A stretch of 26,167 nucleotides of DNA from a virus, in the IMG/VR virus record IMGVR_UViG_3300025890_000012, positions 1 to 26,167 of that record. The stretch is one strand, 5' to 3'. How positions within the stretch are numbered: the first letter of the stretch is position 1; every line of letters begins with the position of its first letter. Under the pieces are notes generated by a model. The model saw only the letters and a list, made by a program, of their open reading frames with translations. It was not told where the DNA came from and made no database searches. The position numbers and the translations under genes were made by a program. This document shows positions 1 to 26,167 of this stretch, piece by piece.

Positions 1-59
1 CTTGAGTCAATCTCTTCAAACCTGATCTCCCTGCCCCACACCTTCTTGGAGAAGGCATC
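1..59. repeat. Terminal direct repeat, copy 1 (circular assembly overlap)
   Basis: nt 1-59 (cttgagtcaatctcttcaaacctgatctccctgccccacaccttcttggagaaggcatc) are identical to nt 26109-26167. Confidence 0.95.
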
Positions 60-503
60 CAGATGCTTCTTGACTGTGTTGTACTTCTGCACTGTTCTGT
101 GACCAATAGGAAGTCCAAGTTGATTGGTCCTTTGCCCATCTGCAGTCTCCTTGATGAACTCCTTCACCCACTGGTTGAAGGTCAATGTTGCCTCAGACAC
201 TCCTTCCTTCCCATCCTTGTGTCTCTTGATTGCATCCTTGAATGTCAATGGAGTGATCTCCAGATCCTGAACCATCATCAGTGCATGGACCTTCTTGATG
301 TTGTTGATCTCCTCATCAAGTTCACCCTGAAGAACCACAAGTCTGTTGTTGAGTGGTTTGATCTTCTTGTTTTTTTTGTCCCATGCATTTGTGGGTGTGT
401 TGACTCCAGATGAGATCTTGATTCTTGTCCCATCAATTGTCATTCTGAGTTGAATGATTGACTGGACTCTGTCAGGGAAGGTGAGGAATGGTGTGATCTT
501 CAT
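1..503 (-). CDS. int: Tyrosine integrase, N-terminal part (ORF runs off the window edge and continues at 26108)
   Basis: Not in the ORF track because it is open at the edge. ATG at 503-501. Translation is MKITPFLTFPDRVQSIIQLRMTIDGTRIKISSGVNTPTNAWDKKNKK...HLDAFSKKVWGREIRFEEIDS, which overlaps the start of ORF 25301..26149. 503+808 nt = 1311 nt = 436 aa plus stop. The layout resembles the arm-binding plus SAM-like N-domains of Bacteroidota-type integrases (from memory, not searched). Confidence 0.85.
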   Translation of the reverse strand, partial: MKITPFLTFPDRVQSIIQLRMTIDGTRIKISSGVNTPTNAWDKKNKKIKPLNNRLVVLQGELDEEINNIKKVHALMMVQDLEITPLTFKDAIKRHKDGKEGVSEATLTFNQWVKEFIKETADGQRTNQLGLPIGHRTVQKYNTVKKHLDAFSKKVWGREIRFEEIDS

Positions 504-509
504 TTTTTC

Positions 510-532
510 TGTGGGCCATTTTGTGGGCCATT
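510..532 (+). promoter_or_regulatory. Two arm-type direct repeats TGTGGGCCATT (510-520, 522-532) abutting the int start codon
   Basis: Two exact 11-mers with 12-bp spacing. The same 9-mer core recurs three times at 752-793. They lie 7-29 nt upstream of the int ATG on the other strand. Confidence 0.7.
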
Positions 533-635: not shown

Positions 636-668
636 AAAAAAACCCCAGAAACACTGAGGTCTCTGGGG
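636..668 (-). terminator. Rho-independent terminator (minus strand) just 3' of the tRNA-like segment
   Basis: 7-bp stem CCCCAGA (643-649) / TCTGGGG (662-668) with a 12-nt loop. On the minus strand it is followed by a T7 run (636-642). Confidence 0.7.
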
Positions 669-678
669 AGTCATAAAG

Positions 679-702
679 TAGCCCGTAGGGGATTTGAACC
701 CC
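679..702 (-). other. tRNA 3'-end-like segment (T-arm plus acceptor strand), candidate attP core
   Basis: The minus strand reads GGGGTTCAAATCCCCTACGGGCTA. This is a GTTCAAATC T-loop motif followed by a 7-nt acceptor-like strand. There is no matching 5' acceptor half, D-arm or anticodon arm upstream, so it is a fragment and not a gene. Confidence 0.6.
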
Positions 703-848: not shown

Positions 849-866
849 AACTTGACAGTGTCAACC
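849..866 (+). promoter_or_regulatory. Late box copy 1: AACTTGACAGTGTCAACC
   Basis: 13-bp palindrome TTGACA-G-TGTCAA with conserved asymmetric flanks. It ends 34 nt upstream of the ATG at 901. Confidence 0.65.
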
Positions 867-900
867 TCTCCTGATCCTTCATTGGAGAGTTTTGTCCTCA

Positions 901-1341
901 ATGGATGACAGATCAAAGAAGAGACTCAAAGACACCAAAGTTGGCAAGTGGTTGAGGGAGACCTCACCCAAGGTCCTTGACCTTGTTGGTCACTTACTTC
1001 CTGACAAGGGAGTTCTTGGAGTTGTCAAGAACATGGTTGACAAAGATCCTGAGATCACACATGATCAGAAGATGGATCTGGAGAGACTCATGGAGCAGGA
1101 GAAGACCAAGAGATGGGAGTCAGACAACCAATCAGATTCATGGTTGGCCAAACACACAAGACCACTCATTGTCTTGTCACTGGTTGGTGTCCTCTTCATC
1201 TTCATCATTCTGGACTCACTGGACATTGCATTTGATGTCAGGGAGTCTTGGGTGTCACTTTATGAGGTCCTGATCTTGACTGCAGTTGGAGGATACTTCA
1301 CACTCAGATCTGTCTTTGATAAACGAAACAACAGACCATGA
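901..1341 (+). CDS. Membrane protein, possible holin-like (hydrophilic N-terminus, two C-terminal TM helices)
   Basis: ORF 892..1341 in the track starts at TTG; the first ATG is at 901. Hydrophobic stretches are PLIVLSLVGVLFIFIILDSL and WVSLYEVLILTAVGGYFTL. The stop overlaps the next start (ATGA at 1338-1341). The functional guess rests on layout only. Confidence 0.55.
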   Translation: MDDRSKKRLKDTKVGKWLRETSPKVLDLVGHLLPDKGVLGVVKNMVDKDPEITHDQKMDLERLMEQEKTKRWESDNQSDSWLAKHTRPLIVLSLVGVLFIFIILDSLDIAFDVRESWVSLYEVLILTAVGGYFTLRSVFDKRNNRP

Positions 1342-2354
1342 GTCCAAGACCTCTCTCAGTTGCATGGGCCTATGTGCAGGATCTCCTTCACAAGCACCCC
1401 AACACACCATCATTGACACTGGCAAAGAAAGTCCTCAAGGACAATCCTTCTCTCTTCACTTCAGTGGAGTCTGCAAGGACTGCAATCAGATACTTCAGAG
1501 GAGCAGTTGGGAAGAAGGCAAGGAAGAATGCAGATCCAAAATTGTCCAGACCATTCAATGAATCAATGTTCAATCCCTTTGGAATCCCTGAGACTGATGA
1601 GGTTGAATATCTTCCATTTGTATTGCCAGAGGAATGTTCAAGGATCTTGTTCCTCTCAGACATTCACATCCCCTATCACAACATCTCTGCACTGACATGT
1701 GCATTGGAGTTTGGAATTGAGAGGGATGCAAACACTATATATCTGGGAGGAGACTTCCTTGACTTCTATTCTCTGTCATCATTTGAGAGAGATCCAAGGA
1801 GAAGGAGATTCTCTGAGGAGTTGGAGACTGGAAGAGAAGTCCTCCAGATCATCAGGAGAGAGTTCCCAGATGCAAAGATCTTCTATCTCATTGGCAACCA
1901 TGAGGAGAGATATGAGAGATACATGAGGATCAAGGCACCTGAGTTGTTGGATGTGGAGGAGTTCAGGATTGACAAACTTTTGAAGTTTGATGAACTGGAC
2001 ATTGAGTTGATCAGTGGCAAGAGAGTCACAAAGGCAGGGAAGTTGAACATTGTGCACGGTCATGAATTTGGCAGAGGAGGTGCATCATCTTCAGTCAATC
2101 CTGCAAGAGGTCTCTTCAATAGGGCAAAGACATCCACCATCTGTGGACACCATCATCAAACATCAGAACACAATGAGAGGGATCTCAATGGGGACATGAT
2201 CACCACTTGGTCATCAGGTTGTCTCTGTGAACTCTCTCCAGACTACATGCCAATAAACAGATGGAATCATGGCATGGCATTCATTCAAATAGACCATCAA
2301 TCTGGTTGGTTCAAAGTAGAGAACAGACGGATCATAGATGGTGAACTAATCTAA
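1338..2354 (+). CDS. Calcineurin-like metallophosphoesterase with an N-terminal extension of about 100 aa
   Basis: All five MPE motifs occur in order: LSDIHIPYH (DxH), GGDFLDF (GDxxD), GNHEERY (GNHE), VHGHEFG (GH), CGHHHQ (GHxH). Confidence 0.85.
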   Translation: MSPRPLSVAWAYVQDLLHKHPNTPSLTLAKKVLKDNPSLFTSVESARTAIRYFRGAVGKKARKNADPKLSRPFNESMFNPFGIPETDEVEYLPFVLPEECSRILFLSDIHIPYHNISALTCALEFGIERDANTIYLGGDFLDFYSLSSFERDPRRRRFSEELETGREVLQIIRREFPDAKIFYLIGNHEERYERYMRIKAPELLDVEEFRIDKLLKFDELDIELISGKRVTKAGKLNIVHGHEFGRGGASSSVNPARGLFNRAKTSTICGHHHQTSEHNERDLNGDMITTWSSGCLCELSPDYMPINRWNHGMAFIQIDHQSGWFKVENRRIIDGELI

Positions 2355-2370
2355 AAACAAACACACAAAC

Positions 2371-2535
2371 ATGGAATCATTTTTCATTCAAAACTGGGGT
2401 GAACTCCTCATTGGTATTCTTGCATTTGCAAAGGTTGTGGTGAACATCACACCAACAGAAACGGACAACAAGATCTTTGGTTGGTTGGACAGTCTGATCA
2501 ACATGATCATCTCAGACAGACGGTCAAAAAAATAG
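2371..2535 (+). CDS. Small (54 aa) single-pass membrane protein
   Basis: Below the ORF-track size cutoff. Translated by hand: MESFFIQNWGELLIGILAFAKVVVNITPTETDNKIFGWLDSLINMIISDRRSKK. One N-terminal hydrophobic helix. Starts 16 nt after the MPE stop. Confidence 0.5.
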   Translation: MESFFIQNWGELLIGILAFAKVVVNITPTETDNKIFGWLDSLINMIISDRRSKK

Positions 2536-2714
2536 TGCTCAACTTCAGGTGTCCCACATGTGATCTGGAAAGATCAGAGAACAAGGTGACAACCAAATAT
2601 GTGGAAGGACATGGGATCTGCAATGCAGTATTCTGTGAAGAGTGTGAGGATCTGATGGTGTTGACCAATCCAAAGGAAGGTGCACCTCAACACAAGGACA
2701 CAACCCACTGGTGA
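2535..2714 (+). CDS. Small Zn-ribbon-like protein (CxxC...CxxC)
   Basis: ORF 2481..2714 in the track. A GTG at 2535 abuts the previous stop. The cysteine pairs are CPTC and CEEC. The start is uncertain. Confidence 0.4.
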   Translation: MLNFRCPTCDLERSENKVTTKYVEGHGICNAVFCEECEDLMVLTNPKEGAPQHKDTTHW

Positions 2715-2772
2715 CTCATTCCCATTTGGTCATGCCATTAGGTGAGTTCATTCACTTTTCTCTCATTGGTGA

Positions 2773-3180
2773 TCAGTTGATCAGGTAGTCCTCAAGGATC
2801 TGAACTGCATGATCATATCCCTTTGCAATGGTTGCCTTGAATCCTCTCTCTGAGAGGTCCTCCTTCCATTGTTTCTGATGTTTGGACACCACACCTCCCT
2901 TCTCCCTCTTCATCTCAATAGAGAGTCCGTGATGGACTCCTCTTGGTTCATAGATGAACACATCAGGGAATCCTCTTTTGTATCCAGTTGCTTTGATCCT
3001 TTTGGCTTCAGAGATTGATGTCCTTGCCCCTCCTGCAGATGCACACCAGAGAATGTCTGGATGTTTGTCATCAATGTATTGAGTGAAGTTCTTTTGAATT
3101 TCAAACTCACTCCCAATGCCATGTCTATTCTTGGCAGATCTTCTCTTCCTCAATCCCTTTGTGTGAAGGTTGATCCCCAT
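2773..3180 (-). CDS. VRR-NUC (PD-(D/E)xK) nuclease
   Basis: GFPDVFIYEP...LSIEMKREKGGVVSKHQKQW matches the D...ExK core and the G-x-S-x-x-Q-x-x-W tail typical of VRR-NUC. Overlaps the endolysin 3' end by 31 nt. Confidence 0.7.
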   Translation of the reverse strand: MGINLHTKGLRKRRSAKNRHGIGSEFEIQKNFTQYIDDKHPDILWCASAGGARTSISEAKRIKATGYKRGFPDVFIYEPRGVHHGLSIEMKREKGGVVSKHQKQWKEDLSERGFKATIAKGYDHAVQILEDYLIN

Positions 3181-3575
3181 TTGTCCACCACATCAAATGA
3201 TGGACATGCCTTGTTGCTGAACTCATTGTGACCATAGATGGACACTGGTCCAAAGATGTCTCTGAGTTTGTCCACCAATTCAAAGAATGCACACTCCTGC
3301 AGATCAGTCATGGTGTCTGAAGGAGATCCATCTTCAATCCCTCCCACATAGCAGATCCCAATGGTCTGATTGTGACCTCTTGTGTGGGCACCTTGTTTCC
3401 AGATCGGTCTTCCCCTCTCCACTGTTCCACATCCATCATTCAGGATGACAAAGTGGTATCCAATATCTGACCAATTTCTTGGTGGTGAGGTGTGCCACTT
3501 TCGGATTGTCTCTGTTGAGATGTCCTGACCTTTGTTTGTAGCACTGCAATGGAGAATGATCTGATTGAATTTCAT
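3150..3575 (-). CDS. N-acetylmuramoyl-L-alanine amidase endolysin (T7-lysozyme/PGRP type)
   Basis: MKFNQIILHCSAT...YGHNEFSNKACPSF carries the His/His/Cys Zn-ligand pattern of Amidase_2. The start was chosen at the ATG at 3575, which overlaps the upstream stop (ATGA). Confidence 0.85.
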   Translation of the reverse strand: MKFNQIILHCSATNKGQDISTETIRKWHTSPPRNWSDIGYHFVILNDGCGTVERGRPIWKQGAHTRGHNQTIGICYVGGIEDGSPSDTMTDLQECAFFELVDKLRDIFGPVSIYGHNEFSNKACPSFDVVDKWGSTFTQRD

Positions 3576-3751
3576 GGGAGGAGTTGTTTCAACCAGAGAC
3601 CAACTGCAAGAATGAATGCCCCAATCCCACTCCACCACTTCTTCTCCAGACCATTGATCTTCTCATCATGTTGTGCAACCATGCCAGTGACATGATCCAT
3701 CTTCTCCTCCAATCTTGCAAGGCATGTGATGATTTGATCTTGTTTGTCCAT
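3572..3751 (-). CDS. Putative holin (59 aa, coiled-coil N-terminus, one C-terminal TM helix)
   Basis: MDKQDQIITCLARLEEKMDHVTGMVAQHDEKINGLEKKWWSGIGAFILAVGLWLKQLLP. Translationally coupled to the endolysin. The start was chosen at the internal ATG at 3751, downstream of the late box. Confidence 0.5.
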   Translation of the reverse strand: MDKQDQIITCLARLEEKMDHVTGMVAQHDEKINGLEKKWWSGIGAFILAVGLWLKQLLP

Positions 3752-3787
3752 GTTGTGGTGAATATCAGTTGAGGAGTTGTTTGATCT

Positions 3788-3805
3788 GATTGACGTTGTC
3801 AAGTT
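3788..3805 (-). promoter_or_regulatory. Late box copy 2 (degenerate): minus strand AACTTGACAACGTCAATC
   Basis: Matches the consensus at 15 of 18 positions, including the AACTTGACA half. Fills the gap between the tail-fibre stop (3807) and the holin ATG (3751) and ends 36 nt upstream of that ATG. Confidence 0.5.
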
Positions 3806-3806
3806 C

Positions 3807-6800
3807 TTAGTTGGTCCAATCGTGTGTGATGTTTCCTGATCCAGTTCCAACATCTTGCAGAGTTGTCAGAGTTGTCTCCTCTCCACTGAAGGCACCAGTG
3901 TTTGACACCATGATCTTCAGATCACATGGGGCAGTTGTATTGGATGCATCAATGATGATCCTTGCAGACTCAATTGCCTTTGCACTGAAGAATTGAATCT
4001 GACACCAGTTGTCGTCTTGTTGTGACCTACCAATTCCAGATGTTGACCATCCAGTTGAGGTTGATCCATCAAAGGCAGTCCATCCTGCAGTCCCTTGAGT
4101 TGATGCATATCCATGAGATATGACAAAGTCTGACAGTCCTGAACTGTTTCCAGTGCCACTGGTTGCATTTGTAGTTGGGTTGTCTGTCCCTCCTCTGTTT
4201 GCTTCAGTGTATAAGGCAACCTCCATCACCTTGATTGGCTTGGAGATATTGTTGCCACTTGTAGTGTCAACCACTTGCATCCTCATGTACTCCCATGTTG
4301 AAGTTTGTGCAGGTGCAGTGAGATTGTCTGTCCATGCACTACTCTCAGACTTCCCTGCAGAGACTGCAGTGATTGAGAGAGTGTGTGTGTTGGTGTTTGA
4401 TGGATGTGTGAAGGTGACAACTGCACCATTCTGTGTGAAGGATGTCCCAGACAGAACTGTTGATCCATTGGATGTCAACTTCAAGACTGGAATGTATGTG
4501 GTCACTCCATCATAGTTGGTTGCAGTCCATGTGACTGTTGATCCTTGAGTTGGTGTGTCATCATCCACTGCCCCAGTTGGGGTTGTGGTTTGTGAGGTTC
4601 CTGCAGGAGGATCAATGAATGTGAATGATCCAGATCCATTTGTGCTCAATACCTGACCAGAGGTGCCATCTGCCAATTGTGAGAGAACTCCATTTGATCC
4701 CAAGACCATCAACTTTGATCCACTTGCAGGATGTGATGTCAATGATGATCCAACAAAGGTCTTCAAGGCAAGAGTGTCTGTCCCATTTGTGTCTGCCCTT
4801 GCACGGTCAATATCACTCTGATGTTCATCTGATCCTGCACCAATAGGTGCAGAGATTCCTGCAATAGGTGCAACACCTCCAAAAGTTCCTTGAGGTCCCT
4901 TTGGTACTTTGTCTTCATCTTCACTGAAGGACAATCTCTCTCTTCCAATCAACCATGCATCCACATTGTATCTGCAATCTCCTCCAATGTGGTTGAGTCT
5001 TAATGGGGCAAGATATTCCTCCACATCTGCAGAAGTTGAACAGTTGTGATGGATCACTGAGAGGATGTCAATTGGTGCATTGTATTCTGCAGTTGTCTTG
5101 ACCTGAGGAACTATGTCTCCCCTCTGCACATAGAGTGCCCTTCCCCTTTGATAGAGTTGTTCTCTGAGCATTGAGAACTGAAGATCTGTGTCTGTCTCCA
5201 GACCATCAATCTCATCTGTGATGGAGTTCCATTCTGGAGTTGAGTTGATGAAGGGTGTGACAGTAGATCCAAGATATGAAATTGTCTTCACTGCTCCATT
5301 TGATCCTGCCCCTCCAGATGCGTAGTTGCTACCAACAGTTGTTGATCCACAATCCAGATATTCAGTGTTCTCAGTCTGTTCCACAAACATGTCCCAACTG
5401 GCATCATCTGATGCACTTCCAAGGATCACTCTCAATCCATCAATTCTGTCTTCAGGTGCACTCAGATTGAATGAACCAGTGTCTGATCCAGTGTGGTCAT
5501 AATCAACAATTGCAACTGAGTCAAGGATGTTGTCAAGTTCTGGGAATGTCTGCTTGACAGTTCCATTCCTTGTCAGGACAATTCTCTCCACTCCAATTGT
5601 CACCCCATCATAGGATGAGAGGTTGTCTGGAAGAGGAAGACATGCAAATTCAAAAGCATGTTCAACATCAGTCCATTGTGTGTCATTGACTCGATATTCA
5701 AACTCACCATCCTGAGTGGCCCTGATATGAAGTCCCCCAACTCTGCTCCATCCACCACTTGACTCCACCTCTGCAGGAGGAGTTGAAGAGGTCCAAGGAA
5801 CTATGACATCAAAGAACTTCTCATTGGTTGACCATGAGGGAGTGTCCAAGAAGATTCTGTGAAAGTTGATGTTTGGATCTGTGAGGTCTCCATTGAATCC
5901 AGTTGGCATGTCAATGTGTGTGACTGCACTGTCCACACTGTACTCACTGCCATAGTAGTATGGAGTCCCTGATGCACTGTTGATCTTGATCTTGAATCTC
6001 AACAAGATCCTTGCACCAATCCGATCAGTTCCAAGATCGAATCCGTTCCCAAGAAGTGCAGATCCAAACTCTCTGACCAGATCTGTGGAGTATGTCCCAC
6101 TCAAGGTGAGGATCTCTCCTTCACTCACAACAAGGTCTTGATTGCCAAATGTCACAACACCACTTCCATTGTTGGGATAGTCAAGATAGAAGTTCCTTGG
6201 AGGTCCCAAGACTGATCTTGTTCCTGCATCTTCAAATGTCAAGGTGCACCTCTTGATGGGGAGGAGATAGGAGTTGGACCATCCAATTCCAAGTGCATGA
6301 TCTGCATCAATGTCATGTCTGAAGTTCACGTCTTGATAGGTTGACGTGTCACCATTGACAATGCCTCCAACAAGTTGTGTCTGTATTGTCTCAGAAGAGA
6401 CTTGTGACCTGAACCAACTTTGGACTCTCAATGTGTGACTCCAGTTGAGTGCATTGGCAGGGAAGAACCAGAATGAAGATCTTGCCATTGTGATCCTTGC
6501 CCCAAATGCATTTGCAATGTTCTCAAGGACATTCTTGCAGGAGTTGAAGTTTGGAGGTTGTTTGATCCTCCTTCCATATTCATCCTCATCAACGTCTCCT
6601 CCATCACTAAAGGTCAAAGAATTGACCACTGTCCTCTCAATGACTGAGATGGGGAACGCATCCCCTTCTGATGATGCAAAGGATGAGTATGTCCCAGAAA
6701 AATGATCTTTACTGAAACAATCCACCACTTCCCTCATCTGAAAGTCTGAGTTGGACCAGAAGGTTGCAGTTGGGATCTTATTGATGCAACGTGCAAAGAC

Positions 6801-11511: not shown

Positions 11512-11529
11512 GGTTGACAGTGTCAAGTT
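11512..11529 (-). promoter_or_regulatory. Late box copy 3: minus strand AACTTGACACTGTCAACC
   Basis: Lies in the 51-nt gap between ORFs 11531..11938 and 11213..11479. Ends 32 nt upstream of the ATG at 11479. Confidence 0.65.
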
Positions 11530-16600: not shown

Positions 16601-16618
16601 GGTTGACAGTGTCAAGTT
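16601..16618 (-). promoter_or_regulatory. Late box copy 4: minus strand AACTTGACACTGTCAACC
   Basis: Identical 18-mer to copy 3. Ends 33 nt upstream of the portal ATG at 16567. Confidence 0.65.
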
Positions 16619-19995: not shown

Positions 19996-21504
19996 TTACT
20001 TCTGAATTTGTTTGATCATTGATCCATTCTTGTTGCCCTCATTGTCAAAGGAGATCACAACCTTGAACTCAACCTCACCATCTTCATTCAACCAATTGGG
20101 ATGGACCTCAAAGGGAAGGTGAACAGTTGGAAGGAATCCCATCTGAGTCATCCCCTTGTCTTGTCCTTTGACCTCAATGGTCTCTGTGGATCTGTCATCT
20201 GAAGTGATCACTGGATCTTCAACACTTGACATGACTGCCTCCATCAATTCAAGATCTGGGATTGTCACCTTTGCAGGATCAATGACAACTTGATCTGGGA
20301 CCACTCCAGTCCTGATCCAAGTGTCAATGACAGACTCTTCAAGTTGAACCTGATGAGAATCCATCTTCAGTCTTGCCAGTTGAAGATCTCTCTGCAGTTG
20401 AACATTCTTCTCATCCATTTTCTGAATCTTCTTGAGTGTGTCCAACTTGATGTCTGCAATCCATCTCTCTGCTTCTTTTTGAGTGATGTCTCCTGCTTTG
20501 AATTTGGCAACCACATCCTTGATGTTTGTCTGTTCATAGGGTGACTCAAACTGCTTTGGATCTTCTGGAGTTGGTTCCCAATCCTCGTGAGGTCCTTCTT
20601 CAGACATCTTCTTGAGGTGTCTCCACATGTTGTGGGAATTTTCTGCTCTTGGATCAGGTTCCCCAGTGGCCTCATCCCATTCAAAGACTGCCTCCTCAAT
20701 CATCATGATTGCCTCCTCACAGTTGTGTCCTCCCCATCTGCCATCATAAACATTCAGCAATGGGAATCCTCCATCTATATACTGAGGACCAACAATTCCA
20801 TCATCATCCTTGCCTTTTGCATAGAACATGAATGCAGTTGGATAGTTGGTGCCCATCCAATCATTGATCTCATCAGCATCCCAATAGGTGCATGTTGAGA
20901 CCTGATGTCTTGGAGTGTCTCCCATCCTATTGATCACCCACAGATCTTCTCTTGCTCCATCATATTCATTCCAGTTCTTGATCCCAATCATTGTCATGAA
21001 GTCAGGGTGAAGATCAATTCCTCTGACAGTTGAATTGGGACAAACAACACAAAGTCCAAGATCAAATGCCTCCCTGAAGTGGTGACTGAAAATTGAATAG
21101 TTAAGTTTTTCCAATTCATCTGTGACATTCCTGATGAAGGAATTGGTGACTGGTCTGTATCCATCTCTTGCCTTTGCTTTGATAGTCTCATCTTCTGAGT
21201 GGAGGTCTGCATATGATGGGGACTTTGACAGACAGACATTGTTCCAAGTTTGACGAGTCTTGCCAGTTGCATTGGTGATCCCTTCCCAATCCCAGTTGAG
21301 TTGTTCCCTCATGATCTGCACCAAATTCAGTGCCCACATCCTCCTGACATTGAACTGCATCTTGTTCCACTCTTCCAGATCCAACACTCTTGGTGCAGAA
21401 TCAAATGGTGACTTGTATGTCTTTGGGATTGTTAATGCTTGGACATGAGTGTTCTGTTGGTTCTTGATTGCCTCAGTGACCTTGATGTTCTGTGATTTGC
21501 TCAT
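19996..21504 (-). CDS. Hypothetical protein, 502 aa, no recognisable catalytic motif. Possible HTH near residues 70-95 and a coiled-coil region near residues 330-390
   Basis: Long uninterrupted ORF with an ATG start 18 nt downstream of an ATTTGCACCC box. WEGITNATGKTRQTWNNV looks HTH-like. KEAERWIADIKLDTLKKIQKMDEKNVQLQRDLQLARLK is heptad-like. Confidence 0.7.
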   Translation of the reverse strand: MSKSQNIKVTEAIKNQQNTHVQALTIPKTYKSPFDSAPRVLDLEEWNKMQFNVRRMWALNLVQIMREQLNWDWEGITNATGKTRQTWNNVCLSKSPSYADLHSEDETIKAKARDGYRPVTNSFIRNVTDELEKLNYSIFSHHFREAFDLGLCVVCPNSTVRGIDLHPDFMTMIGIKNWNEYDGAREDLWVINRMGDTPRHQVSTCTYWDADEINDWMGTNYPTAFMFYAKGKDDDGIVGPQYIDGGFPLLNVYDGRWGGHNCEEAIMMIEEAVFEWDEATGEPDPRAENSHNMWRHLKKMSEEGPHEDWEPTPEDPKQFESPYEQTNIKDVVAKFKAGDITQKEAERWIADIKLDTLKKIQKMDEKNVQLQRDLQLARLKMDSHQVQLEESVIDTWIRTGVVPDQVVIDPAKVTIPDLELMEAVMSSVEDPVITSDDRSTETIEVKGQDKGMTQMGFLPTVHLPFEVHPNWLNEDGEVEFKVVISFDNEGNKNGSMIKQIQK

Positions 21505-21716: not shown

Positions 21717-21959
21717 ATGAGCATACCAAGAACGCAAGTCTTTGACACTCTGCTGACAACTTCTGAAGTTGCAGAGATCTTGAAGGTCACTCCTGCAACT
21801 GTCAGGAATATGATCAAGAGAGGAGACATCACAGACTGCATCCAACTTAACAAAGGGGGAAGAATACTCTACCGAGTACCAATGAACTCCCTCAGGTCTT
21901 TAATGGGCAATGATCTGCCCCAGAATGAAAGCAGATCAGTATTTTCAAATCTCTCATAA
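21717..21959 (+). CDS. Helix-turn-helix DNA-binding protein (excisionase/MerR-like HTH_17 type). Candidate Xis and/or Cro-like regulator
   Basis: TTSEVAEILKVTPATVRNMIKRGDI...GGRILYRV is the typical Xis/AlpA-type winged-HTH signature. It is the first gene of the early operon. Confidence 0.75.
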   Translation: MSIPRTQVFDTLLTTSEVAEILKVTPATVRNMIKRGDITDCIQLNKGGRILYRVPMNSLRSLMGNDLPQNESRSVFSNLS

Positions 21960-21960
21960 A

Positions 21961-22539
21961 ATGAGTATAATGACACAAGGGTTCTTGCCCTTCAATTTTG
22001 GCATTCAAACGAATGCAGACGGCACATGTTCAACTCCAACTCCTCACACGGAGGATCTAACTCCATTCTTCCCTGATATTAAAGGAAGAAGGATCTGGAA
22101 CAAAAAACACCCAGAGATTGCAAACTATCCTGAAGCAATTGCATACTGTGTGGACAAATACTGTGATGAACATGCAGTCCCAGTGACATGGTTCATAGTT
22201 TCCAAACTGCTGAAGGCAGAAGGATTCCCAAAGATGAACAAGGGCAACATCACCAATGCCATCAACATGGGCCTGATCACAAGAGTGGCGATCAAGGACT
22301 TCCAGAAGTCTAAAAGAGGGGAGCAACTTCTTGCCTCTAATGAGTTGGGAGAAAACGTCAACAACATGATCTGGGACTTCACCAATTGGTTTGAAGACAT
22401 AGACGATGGAACAGAGACTCCATTCAGATGGAATGAACACCGTGAGGTCTTCATGAACAACCTTCTGAGGAGTGTCAAACAACGTGGATTCTTCAAAACC
22501 AAAGTACACTGTCACCCAAATGTTGGACTTCCGTTCTAA
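21961..22539 (+). CDS. Hypothetical protein (192 aa)
   Basis: ATG at 21961 directly after the upstream stop; the track start at 21910 overlaps the upstream gene. TAATG coupling to the next gene. No motif recognised. Confidence 0.6.
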   Translation: MSIMTQGFLPFNFGIQTNADGTCSTPTPHTEDLTPFFPDIKGRRIWNKKHPEIANYPEAIAYCVDKYCDEHAVPVTWFIVSKLLKAEGFPKMNKGNITNAINMGLITRVAIKDFQKSKRGEQLLASNELGENVNNMIWDFTNWFEDIDDGTETPFRWNEHREVFMNNLLRSVKQRGFFKTKVHCHPNVGLPF

Positions 22540-25040: not shown

Positions 25041-25311
25041 TTGGATTGATGACATCTTTGAGGAGTTGGAGGATCGGGTGCCTGAGGGCATCCGTTTCCG
25101 TTTGGATGAACTTCTGGATCAGATCTACATTGAAGATGAGAGAGACTTCCTGCATCTTCTACAAAGGATCTACTCTCCTGATCTAACCTCTCAGGGAGTC
25201 ACAGATCTGTTCAGGGAACTCAATGACAGAAGAGTCCCAGTGAGGGATCAATATGCCCCAAGACAGAAGGATCTTGCAGAGTGGATCAGGTCCTTCTGCT
25301 TCACAGATTGA
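25024..25311 (+). CDS. Hypothetical acidic protein (95 aa)
   Basis: The ATG at 25024 is preceded by gaggATG. The 3' end overlaps the convergent int stop by 11 nt. Confidence 0.5.
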   Translation: MSTDPDWIDDIFEELEDRVPEGIRFRLDELLDQIYIEDERDFLHLLQRIYSPDLTSQGVTDLFRELNDRRVPVRDQYAPRQKDLAEWIRSFCFTD

Positions 25312-26167
25312 GAGACTTCAACAACTGCATCCCTGCCACTTTGCTCATCTCAGATTGTGAGATGTCCAGATACTTCAGGAAGGCACCTTCTGAATTGTGT
25401 CCAGTGAGTGACATGAGTTGACCGTTTGACAACTTCCCTCTCTTGTAGAGATTGGTTGCAAATGTTCTCCTTGCAGTGTGGTTTGAGACAAGTTCATGCA
25501 ATGGGACTCTTGAGATCTTCCCTGCATCAGACATCTTCCCTGACATCTGATCAATCATTCTGTCCAATCCGACAATCTCACATGCCTCCTTGATCTTCTT
25601 GTTCATCTGTTGTTCTGCACTCACTTCAGGAAGGTCTCCCTGCCACTTGGTGATCACCTTGCAGAGTTCAGGCATGACTGGAATGGTCACCTCATCTTTG
25701 GTCTTGTCCTGCACAAAAGTCAAGAACCTTGGACACTTCCCTCCACTCTGCTTCCATGCATCCTTGATGACCTCTGGCATCCTCTTCAGATCTGAGATCC
25801 TGACACCAGTCCAACATGCCACAAGGAAGTGATCCCTGCACTGGTTCAGGGCAGTCTTCTCAATGTCAAATCTGTTCTTCCCAGAGAAGTCATGATCTGC
25901 AAGGATCTGCAACTCCTCCTCTGTGAGAGTTGGCTTCCTGACCTTGATCTCCTTTGGGAGGAAGGCCTTTGTTTGCCACTGCTTATTGGAGTGCACTTCT
26001 CTGAGATATGACTCCTTCATCCACGTCTTGAGGACTGCCTGATCTTTGGCAATGGTGTTGACACCAAGTCCTTGATCCCCTCTGTACTTCTTGTACTGCT
26101 CCAAGAACCTTGAGTCAATCTCTTCAAACCTGATCTCCCTGCCCCACACCTTCTTGGAGAAGGCATC
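25301..26167 (-). CDS. int: Tyrosine integrase, C-terminal catalytic part
   Basis: Tyrosine-recombinase motifs are present: TGVRISDL (Arg), HTARRTF (H-x-x-R), LTGH (His), FLKYL (Tyr). The GTG start in the track is an artefact, because the ORF is open upstream to the window end. Confidence 0.9.
   Translation of the reverse strand, partial: DAFSKKVWGREIRFEEIDSRFLEQYKKYRGDQGLGVNTIAKDQAVLKTWMKESYLREVHSNKQWQTKAFLPKEIKVRKPTLTEEELQILADHDFSGKNRFDIEKTALNQCRDHFLVACWTGVRISDLKRMPEVIKDAWKQSGGKCPRFLTFVQDKTKDEVTIPVMPELCKVITKWQGDLPEVSAEQQMNKKIKEACEIVGLDRMIDQMSGKMSDAGKISRVPLHELVSNHTARRTFATNLYKRGKLSNGQLMSLTGHNSEGAFLKYLDISQSEMSKVAGMQLLKSLNL
26109..26167. repeat. Terminal direct repeat, copy 2 (circular assembly overlap)
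   Basis: Identical to nt 1-59, base by base. Confidence 0.95.

Follow-up and report, generated by a model that had tools for sequence, protein, structure and literature searches.

A holin-family protein and a PHROG 221 phosphoesterase in an attachment-site-proximal cassette of a marine Flavobacteriales phage

The window analysed here is the whole of IMG/VR virus record IMGVR_UViG_3300025890_000012, 26,167 nucleotides (nt) long. At 849-2714 it carries a cassette of four plus-strand open reading frames (ORFs), of which the first encodes a small membrane protein (ORF1) and the second a metallophosphoesterase (MPE). An original prediction, made from the sequence alone, had proposed that this pairing might be an undescribed module for lysis, phage exclusion or defence. 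We find an ordinary, if tidy, phage module of known protein families. Our preferred reading, to which we give roughly an even chance, is that ORF1 belongs to a holin family, that the MPE is a metal-dependent diesterase acting on DNA or nucleic-acid-derived substrates and made late together with a VRR-NUC nuclease, and that ORF3 and ORF4 are lineage-specific.

The cassette, its box and the opposing unit

The cassette comprises the following genes (lengths in amino acids, aa):

901-1341 (alternative TTG start at 892), plus strand: ORF1, 146 aa, holin-family membrane protein, PHROG 3427
1338-2354, plus strand: ORF2, the MPE, 338 aa; PF00149 (E 1.8e-8), phrog_221 (E 6.6e-45)
2371-2535, plus strand: ORF3, 54 aa, single-pass membrane protein with a transmembrane segment at residues 9-27
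2535-2714, plus strand: ORF4, 59 aa from GTG 2535, four-cysteine zinc-ribbon-like protein (CPTC...CEEC)

The tight packing of four plus-strand genes was confirmed as predicted, as was the overlap of the first two, in which the MPE start and the ORF1 stop share the ATGA at 1338-1341. The boundaries of ORF4 and of the amidase listed below needed correction: the likely ORF4 start is the GTG at 2535, which overlaps the ORF3 stop codon as TAGTG and gives 59 aa rather than 77, the 77-aa version (from TTG 2481) overlapping ORF3. For ORF1, public gene calls (P0124) use the ATG at 901 and thus give 146 aa. A charged stretch of about 85 aa at the N-terminus of the protein is followed by a transmembrane segment, a weaker hydrophobic segment and a basic C-terminus (RSVFDKRNNRP). 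Kyte-Doolittle hydropathy is strong over residues 89-107 (2.8) and weaker over 117-135 (1.4). The label holin-like held up, supported by a match to phrog_3427 ('holin'; E 1.3e-14, residues 56-141), and ORF1 may act as a holin. The database contains 388 ORF1 homologues, and one distant homologue (locus L125) lies two genes from an M15_3 peptidase.

Upstream of ORF1 lies a palindromic element, predicted earlier as a late box, that we recovered together with its copies before the portal, tail and amidase units:

852-864, plus strand: late box TTGACAGTGTCAA (extended form AAC-TTGACAnTGTCAACC), about 37 nt upstream of the ORF1 ATG
11514-11526 and 16603-16615: near-identical copies, each with an ATG 34-39 nt downstream on the relevant strand
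3790-3802: degenerate copy, 39 nt upstream of the gene for a 59-aa protein

One copy each stands before the ORF1 unit, a tail-gene unit, the portal gene and the unit encoding the 59-aa protein, an amidase and the VRR-NUC nuclease; all four share the flanks AAC...(C/T)C and have an ATG 34-39 nt away. A search allowing up to 3 mismatches returned 12 matches where 2.5 were expected. Upstream of ORF1 homologues, the sequence TTGAC-N3-GT(C/T)AACC is invariant in 7 related loci, with variable surroundings. Because the box is shared and is invariant in these relatives, co-regulation of the ORF1 unit with the structural genes can reasonably be inferred. Three near-identical copies have the layout AAC-TTGACAnTGTCAACC, about 22 nt, (T/G)GG(A/T)G(A/G)(A/T)TTT(T/C)G, 5-7 nt, ATG; downstream of the ORF1 box the TTTG motif falls at 891-894. 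This TTTG close to the ATG resembles the -7 promoter element of Bacteroidetes, and the palindrome would then be centred near -42, which suggests that the late box is a candidate binding site for a dimeric activator and that the transcripts might be near-leaderless.

The cassette converges on a minus-strand unit:

2773-3180, minus strand: VRR-NUC (PD-(D/E)xK) nuclease; PF08774 (E 3.6e-7), phrog_824 (E 7e-29), phrog_5702 'Holliday junction resolvase' (E 1.9e-14)
3150-3575, minus strand: Amidase_2 endolysin, 141 aa from its likely start, ATG 3575; PF01510 (E 1.5e-8), phrog_822 (E 2.1e-47)
3572-3751, minus strand: 59-aa protein with a coiled-coil-like N-terminal region and a C-terminal hydrophobic segment at residues 40-58

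The two box-driven units meet at 2714-2773; in each, the first gene encodes a small membrane protein and is coupled to that of an enzyme, and both include a nuclease-type protein. Within the minus-strand unit, the genes for the 59-aa protein and the amidase overlap by an ATGA (3572-3575), and VRR-NUC, the last gene, shares 31 nt with the 3' end of the amidase gene. The stretch 2773-3751, described earlier as a canonical lysis cassette, thus includes at 2773-3180 a gene for a nuclease and not for a lysis protein. A 59-aa gene occupies the equivalent position in three related prophage copies (L084-L086), in one of which (L084) the amidase homologue is called at 144 aa. This tail-anchored protein is a candidate second holin or lysis membrane protein, and since it is the one found ATGA-coupled to the amidase, which lies 1.8 kb from ORF1 on the opposite strand, ORF1 is less certain as 'the' holin of that amidase. 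The pairing of amidase and VRR-NUC is kept in L005-L007 and in L084-L086; L008 differs in having a VRR-NUC homologue (31% identity) immediately before the MPE, whose start it overlaps.

A phosphoesterase of PHROG 221

The MPE consists of an N-terminal helical domain (residues ~1-65), a flexible linker (~66-100) and a catalytic domain (100-338). Its metal-binding motifs, D108-x-H110, G138-D139-x-x-D142, G186-N187-H188, H240/H242 and G270-H271-x-H273, are invariant across an alignment of 39 sequences, as expected from the earlier claim that the catalytic motifs are intact. The N-terminal extension noted at the same time is likewise real and conserved, and resolves into a helical bundle of about 65 residues and a low-confidence linker reaching to about residue 100. 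An AlphaFold model of the full protein (mean pLDDT 80) has a core with a helical insertion between motifs III and IV and a poorly ordered linker; modelled alone, the N-terminal domain reaches pLDDT 87, with helices at 8-19, 25-35, 43-54 and 56-64. Neither a signal peptide nor a transmembrane segment was found in the MPE.

By sequence the MPE is a clear member of PHROG 221, a catalogued phage family, which it matches over residues 41-321. The same profile recognises Gp48 of mycobacteriophage A10ZJ24 (2.4e-124), a phosphoesterase of an Aeromonas T7-like phage (2e-97), gp29 of Verrucomicrobia phage P8625 (2.7e-59) and MPEs of Bacteroidota-like phages (1e-38 to 1e-45). Comparison of the alignment of the window family with Gp48 by hhalign gave a probability of 99.1% (E 1.4e-18) over 227 columns, including the helical insertion after GNHE. 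Gp48 is an early-expressed, cytoplasmic phosphodiesterase and non-specific DNase, the one tested member of PHROG 221. It clearly cleaves a model phosphodiester substrate, breaks down host DNA in vivo and, in vitro, DNA in linear, plasmid and genomic form, loses activity when its motifs are mutated, and has been portrayed as a counter-defence factor that acts by degrading DNA (PMC12287305).

The family is large and predominantly viral. At E<=1e-30 a profile search with the MPE retrieved 1,555 representatives of clusters formed at 50% identity, rising to 4,783 at E<=1e-10. Most of the family is on phage contigs; 185,579 species genomes yielded 22 loci, all in metagenome-assembled genomes. The two-domain architecture is common to P8625 gp29 (40% identity over the full length) and to proteins of Chryseobacterium and Microcystis phages (41-45% identity), and the phosphoesterase of T7-like Aeromonas phages shares the N-terminal helical region more distantly. 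Among the family members, P0369 and P0376 (also P0252 and P0290) are 660-990 aa long and have the MPE profile split at about residue 191, just after GNHE, or at about 270; P0369 and P0376 carry Hint and/or LAGLIDADG intein domains at the breaks.

Structural comparison was less specific. Sequence and profile searches with the MPE against PDB sequences gave nothing significant (best MJ0936, E 0.17), and NCBIfam returned only a sub-threshold match to YaeI. Foldseek with the full model against the PDB found YydB, LpxH, Mre11 and Vps29 at query-normalised TM-scores of 0.32-0.41 and 8-15% identity; these are generic MPE folds and therefore allow no substrate to be assigned. Several specific identities were considered and set aside. 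LpxH enzymes carry the motif III signature GNRD; the MPE has GNHE there, and the Foldseek TM-scores with LpxH were 0.34-0.39 at 12-14% identity. Mre11/SbcD (TM-score 0.32-0.39) was dropped because the MPE model contains no capping domain; Pfam and PHROGs detected no SMC-type ATPase, the Rad50/SbcC-like partner, among the 7 gene products at 892-3853. A helix-turn-helix DNA-binding role for the N-terminal domain was likewise unsupported, with no Foldseek match below E 0.7.

Could the MPE be a protein phosphatase of the NinI/lambda type, modulating host or phage phosphoproteins? Motif III of the form GNHE and a second aspartate in motif II (GDxxD) are features of PPP-type enzymes, and the MPE has both. 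Its motif I, however, is SD(I/V)H(I/V)PYH (SDIHIPYH in the window) rather than GDxHG, and its motif II is GGDFLDFY rather than GDxVDRG; it has no sequence match to solved PPP phosphatases or any other PDB entry, and PPP enzymes are absent from the 50 structural neighbours listed. We rejected the NinI/PPP identity and consider this function highly improbable.

Gene neighbourhoods and alternative functions

If ORF1 and the MPE formed a dedicated module, they should travel together, and the original prediction had proposed their co-occurrence as a check. An ORF1 homologue was found in 4 of 82 MPE loci on viral contigs; these have the MPEs closest to that of the window (67-78% identity), and in each the two genes overlap by the ATGA. 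The pair is also present in the same-clade prophage copies L084-L086, so that it occurs only at an MPE identity of at least 67% and in these three copies. The MPE occurs without ORF1 at about 90 loci, and ORF1 without the MPE at L087, L110-L112 and L116-L124. At L087 (10001-10793), which may be a prophage remnant, ORF1 is directly followed by ORF3 and ORF4, the MPE being cleanly absent; the next gene there encodes a signal-peptide protein, after which the contig ends. At L110-L112 the MPE is reduced to its first 25 codons after the ATGA, followed by a stop and then a secreted esterase. At L116-L124 distant ORF1 homologues (37-46% identity) directly follow the gene for a tail protein of about 1,320 aa, and downstream of them lie unrelated genes encoding, for example, a secreted metalloprotease or a lipoprotein. 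The coupling of ORF1 and the MPE is thus positional and confined to one clade, and does not constitute an obligate two-component system. Measured against well-characterised families, as had also been suggested, the MPE falls into PHROG 221 with its DNase member Gp48, and ORF1 into PHROG 3427. Because both main proteins belong to catalogued phage families and their pairing is clade-confined, the idea of an undescribed membrane protein-phosphoesterase module is not supported.

The L110-L112 loci (L110 1613-3589, also L111 and L112) belong to a widespread small element with an integrase, an attachment-site-like region, a late box and an ORF1 homologue. Its 367-aa esterase has weak PHB-depolymerase/S9-like matches, host genes for ferritin and prolyl-tRNA synthetase lie just beyond the element, and its ORF1 protein is indexed in 34 blocks of the contig collection.

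An anti-defence or abortive-infection-like cassette was another of the functions first proposed: the MPE might cut cyclic-nucleotide signals, or ORF1 might be a PycTM-like effector accompanied by a phosphodiesterase, the whole being prophage cargo by the attachment site. The attachment-site-proximal slot and its rapid cargo turnover fit this idea, and Gp48 has been called a counter-defence factor, though one that works through DNA degradation (PMC12287305). PADLOC gave ORF1 a weak match to PycTM (E 2.7e-4), but at 19 bits it is confined to the hydrophobic transmembrane segments; the MPE, ORF3, ORF4 and VRR-NUC had no PADLOC match, and neither a cyclase nor a nucleotide-binding domain is present. 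The promoter element is that of the structural genes, and the MPE family is mostly a phage family, as its scarcity in the species genomes attests. This search thus lent the defence reading no support, and we hold it to be very unlikely.

Association with lysis genes is more substantial. A recognised endolysin lies within three genes of the MPE in 61 of 91 evaluable loci (a count based on conservative endolysin detection), which fall into 7 of the 26 MPE clusters formed at 60% identity. The endolysins include Phage_lysozyme, Peptidase_M15_4, M15_3, GH19, CHAP and Amidase_2 types, and 4-nt gene overlaps are frequent. In loci with 40-50% identical MPEs, mostly from Bacteroidota-like siphoviruses, the MPE stands at the end of the late operon in the order tail fibre, small membrane proteins, spanin-like lipoprotein with a C-terminal transmembrane segment, endolysin, MPE, small protein. 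Side by side with this, 44 loci (L013, L016, L018, L039, L046 and others) encode, 1-3 genes before the MPE and flanked by holin-like genes and the endolysin, a 160-195-aa protein with a lipobox-like signal (…TIGCNPG…), a coiled-coil-like centre, a C-terminal transmembrane segment and no Pfam match; from these features it looks like a candidate single-chain spanin of Bacteroidota phages.

Such an arrangement invites the explanation that the MPE is a lysis accessory, made with the lysis genes and either acting on a phosphodiester- or pyrophosphate-linked envelope component once the holin has released it or clearing DNA as the cell lyses, with ORF1 as its dedicated holin. The MPE keeps its position while endolysin type and gene order vary, its gene in the window overlaps that of a holin-family protein by an ATGA and runs towards the amidase unit, and LpxH, which has a helical insertion at a place similar to that of the MPE, is among its structural neighbours. 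Against this, the association is concentrated in two clades, other lineages hold the MPE among genes of DNA and nucleotide metabolism, the enzyme has no signal peptide or transmembrane segment, its motif III is not that of LpxH, and its characterised homologue Gp48 is a cytoplasmic DNase (PMC12287305). Position alone is also weak evidence, because accessory genes commonly lie where late operons end. We therefore regard the association of the MPE with lysis genes as real but lineage-specific; it could reflect the location of the gene at a boundary between late and DNA-metabolism modules, and a lysis-accessory role for the window MPE seems unlikely. Searches of the literature for a phosphoesterase in lysis cassettes returned nothing relevant.

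A broader version of the same thought is that N-domain-bearing PHROG 221 MPEs, which in phages infecting Bacteroidota and other diderms recur beside holin, endolysin and spanin-like genes and are translationally coupled to them, are placed there for a function, as components of the lysis programme. The holin might then time the enzyme as a terminal 'lysis nuclease', or the enzyme could act on the envelope. We think this improbable; were it true, the two convergent units of the window, each with a membrane protein, an enzyme and a nuclease-type gene, would jointly destroy the host.

Elsewhere the neighbours of the MPE are of a different kind. Divergent loci have mixed surroundings that include M15 peptidases, a holin, PhoH, ThyX, dNMP kinase, NT5C and an SMC-type ATPase, the last (SMC_N) at one distant locus. 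Aeromonas phage phiA014L has the order endonuclease VII, MPE, phosphatase, dNMP kinase, RNA polymerase, the MPE of P8625 lies just before a dNMP kinase gene, and in cluster A mycobacteriophages endonuclease VII, primase and ribonucleotide reductase genes are nearby. In PhiM1-like phages, endonuclease VII and one hypothetical gene (PhiM1_26) are followed by the MPE (PMC6115819). A general partnership of MPE and resolvase was nevertheless dropped, since phmmer found endonuclease VII, VRR-NUC and dNMP kinase near the MPE in only a few loci.

These neighbours raise the alternative that the MPE is a phosphodiesterase or nucleotidase acting on nucleotides or oligonucleotides and feeding pathways of the dNMP kinase type, rather than an endonuclease of chromosomal DNA. 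Overlap or adjacency with dNMP kinase genes in P8625 and Aeromonas phages, the ThyX, NT5C and PhoH genes at divergent loci, and the activity of Gp48 on a model phosphodiester substrate would all suit a role in nucleotide salvage or pool maintenance. However, neither a gene for dNMP kinase nor any other gene of nucleotide metabolism was found next to the window cassette, the late box is a poor fit, and Gp48 degrades high-molecular-weight DNA. We judge nucleotide salvage to be a minor possibility, on a par with the lysis-accessory role.

We favour a late-made diesterase. The cassette would be one of four transcription units expressed from the same palindromic box, converging on the unit for the 59-aa protein, amidase and VRR-NUC. 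The MPE would act as a Gp48-like metal-dependent phosphodiesterase on DNA or nucleic-acid-derived substrates, and would be made late, at the stage of genome packaging, together with the VRR-NUC of the opposing arm. DNA as the substrate, the late timing and the holin role of ORF1 are inferred, and the late timing would suit a non-specific DNase because the phage genome is then presumably being packaged.

Several observations weigh against this proposal. Transfer of the substrate from Gp48 is tentative, because the two proteins share ~25-28% identity in the catalytic domain only, and the gp48 gene is early where the window MPE is seemingly late. The late timing of the cassette itself is based solely on the shared box. 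The N-terminal domain, searched alone with Foldseek, found no counterpart at the level given above. A pure DNA-metabolism role leaves unexplained why two large clades have the MPE in translational coupling with endolysin or spanin-like genes. As to ORF1, its match to PF11351 (GTA_holin_3TM) scores 14.2 bits, below the cut-off of 24.8, and the ATGA-coupled partner of the amidase is a small membrane protein other than ORF1.

Attachment site, cargo turnover and known counterparts

The window phage is a small temperate siphovirus, and its host is a marine Flavobacteriales bacterium. The terminal 59 nt of the window are identical (1-59 = 26109-26167) and the integrase gene spans the junction; because of this exact end repeat and the integrase split across the ends, the window represents a complete circular genome of about 26.1 kb. 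Recognisable genes encode both terminase subunits, small and large, portal, protease, HK97-type capsid protein, tape-measure protein, a 1,173-aa tail fibre, integrase and a primase/helicase-like protein. Two ORFs that lie between the terminase and primase/helicase-like genes, one of 502 aa (19996-21504, minus strand) and one of 209 aa (21910-22539, plus strand), have no PHROG match. Megablast of the window against GenBank phages gave no match. Related contigs, 25-29 kb long, turn up in many marine samples, and a close relative (L084) is integrated in a Flavobacteriales metagenome-assembled genome beside genes with type-9-secretion sorting domains.

The integrase and the attachment-site region are laid out as follows:

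25301-26167 plus ~1-510, minus strand: integrase, running across the contig ends
643-800, no strand: attachment-site region, with terminator hairpin, T-arm-like hairpin and direct repeats; host genes abut it in prophage contigs
643-668, minus strand: terminator hairpin of the attachment-site region
688-702, minus strand: T-arm-like hairpin GGGGTTCAAATCCCC of the attachment-site region
~745-800, with more at ~510-535: direct repeats TGTGGGCCA of the attachment-site region

The attP-proximal position of the cassette, part of the original prediction, is borne out by prophage contigs, in which host genes adjoin the region just upstream of ORF1 homologues: the last host gene lies 227-356 nt upstream of the ORF1 homologue, and the three host-flanked copies (L084, L087 and L111) share the same boundary. 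About five copies of TGTGGGCCA(A/T)T in all flank the T-arm-like hairpin and terminator, and relatives have other, equally repeated words at the same site (GTGGGTCGT, GGGGACGT, GGAGGTCGT). Such a difference between relatives is the pattern expected of integrase arm-binding sites that co-vary with the integrase. ARAGORN and Rfam called no tRNA at the attachment site, where only the T-arm-like hairpin followed by the terminator is visible.

Downstream of the MPE the gene content is unstable. The stretch from MPE to VRR-NUC carries different sets of small genes in L004 (6027-7645), L005 (3879-5497) and L007 (1824-3526), and is a hotspot of variable cargo; Pfam scans of the variable genes in L005, L007 and L084 gave no usable annotation. 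Since the partner genes vary among relatives, the region behaves as a fast-turnover slot downstream of a conserved holin-like gene. ORF3 homologues were found only in L006/L115 and L087, and an ORF4 homologue only in L087, L004-L007 being without it. ORF3 had no match in Pfam, PHROG, NCBIfam or PADLOC. The frame and four cysteines of ORF4 are kept in L087, where 11 codons differ synonymously and 12 non-synonymously; of its predicted identity as a zinc-ribbon protein, the conserved cysteines thus stand, while all zinc-ribbon Pfam matches are sub-threshold. Most likely, ORF3 and ORF4 are small lineage-specific additions in the fast-turnover slot.

If the preferred reading is right, a cassette of a marine Flavobacteriales prophage gains a concrete, testable function, that of a late DNA-degrading phosphodiesterase beside a holin-like protein. 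PHROG 221 phosphoesterases also prove to be very widespread in environmental phages, and most of the closest relatives have the conserved N-terminal domain. This domain, and the recurrent embedding of the MPE in lysis cassettes of two large phage clades, are the mildly interesting remainder.

How does the cassette compare with known systems? Like the holins of PHROG 3427/PF11351, ORF1 is small, membrane-embedded and basic at its C-terminus, and stands at the end of the late genes with an amidase within 1.8 kb; its homologues in other phages come after the last tail gene. Unlike them, it has only one strongly hydrophobic helix, falls under the Pfam gathering threshold, and is encoded on the other strand from the endolysin, whose gene is ATGA-coupled to that of a different small membrane protein.

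A10ZJ24 Gp48 and the other MPEs of cluster A mycobacteriophages share with the window MPE the same PHROG and the whole aligned catalytic domain, with the five metal-binding motifs and the insertion after GNH(D/E). By contrast, Gp48 is 255 aa long and distant in sequence, has neither N-terminal helical domain nor linker, and is expressed early, from a gene among actinophage replication genes, whereas the window MPE follows a box of the structural-gene type beside lysis genes and is coupled to a holin-like gene in a Flavobacteriales phage. The homologues in T7-like Aeromonas phages (Ahphunavirus, such as phiA014L), PhiM1-like Pectobacterium phages and P8625 (gp29) are closer in architecture, with an N-terminal helical region, aligned from residue 16, followed by the MPE domain, but they are embedded in DNA-metabolism modules beside endonuclease VII and dNMP kinase. 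In P8625 the start of gp29 is also overlapped by the gene for a small two-transmembrane protein, gp28, for which BLASTP detected no homology to ORF1 (E 0.09).

Finally, accessory (moron) genes such as the DNases of streptococcal prophages lie downstream of the lysis cassette by the prophage attachment site. The window cassette resembles these in having an enzyme gene at the attachment-site-proximal end beside lysis genes, and in the quick turnover of neighbouring cargo among its relatives. It differs in that its MPE has no secretion signal, is kept across very distant phages and is seemingly co-regulated with the structural genes.

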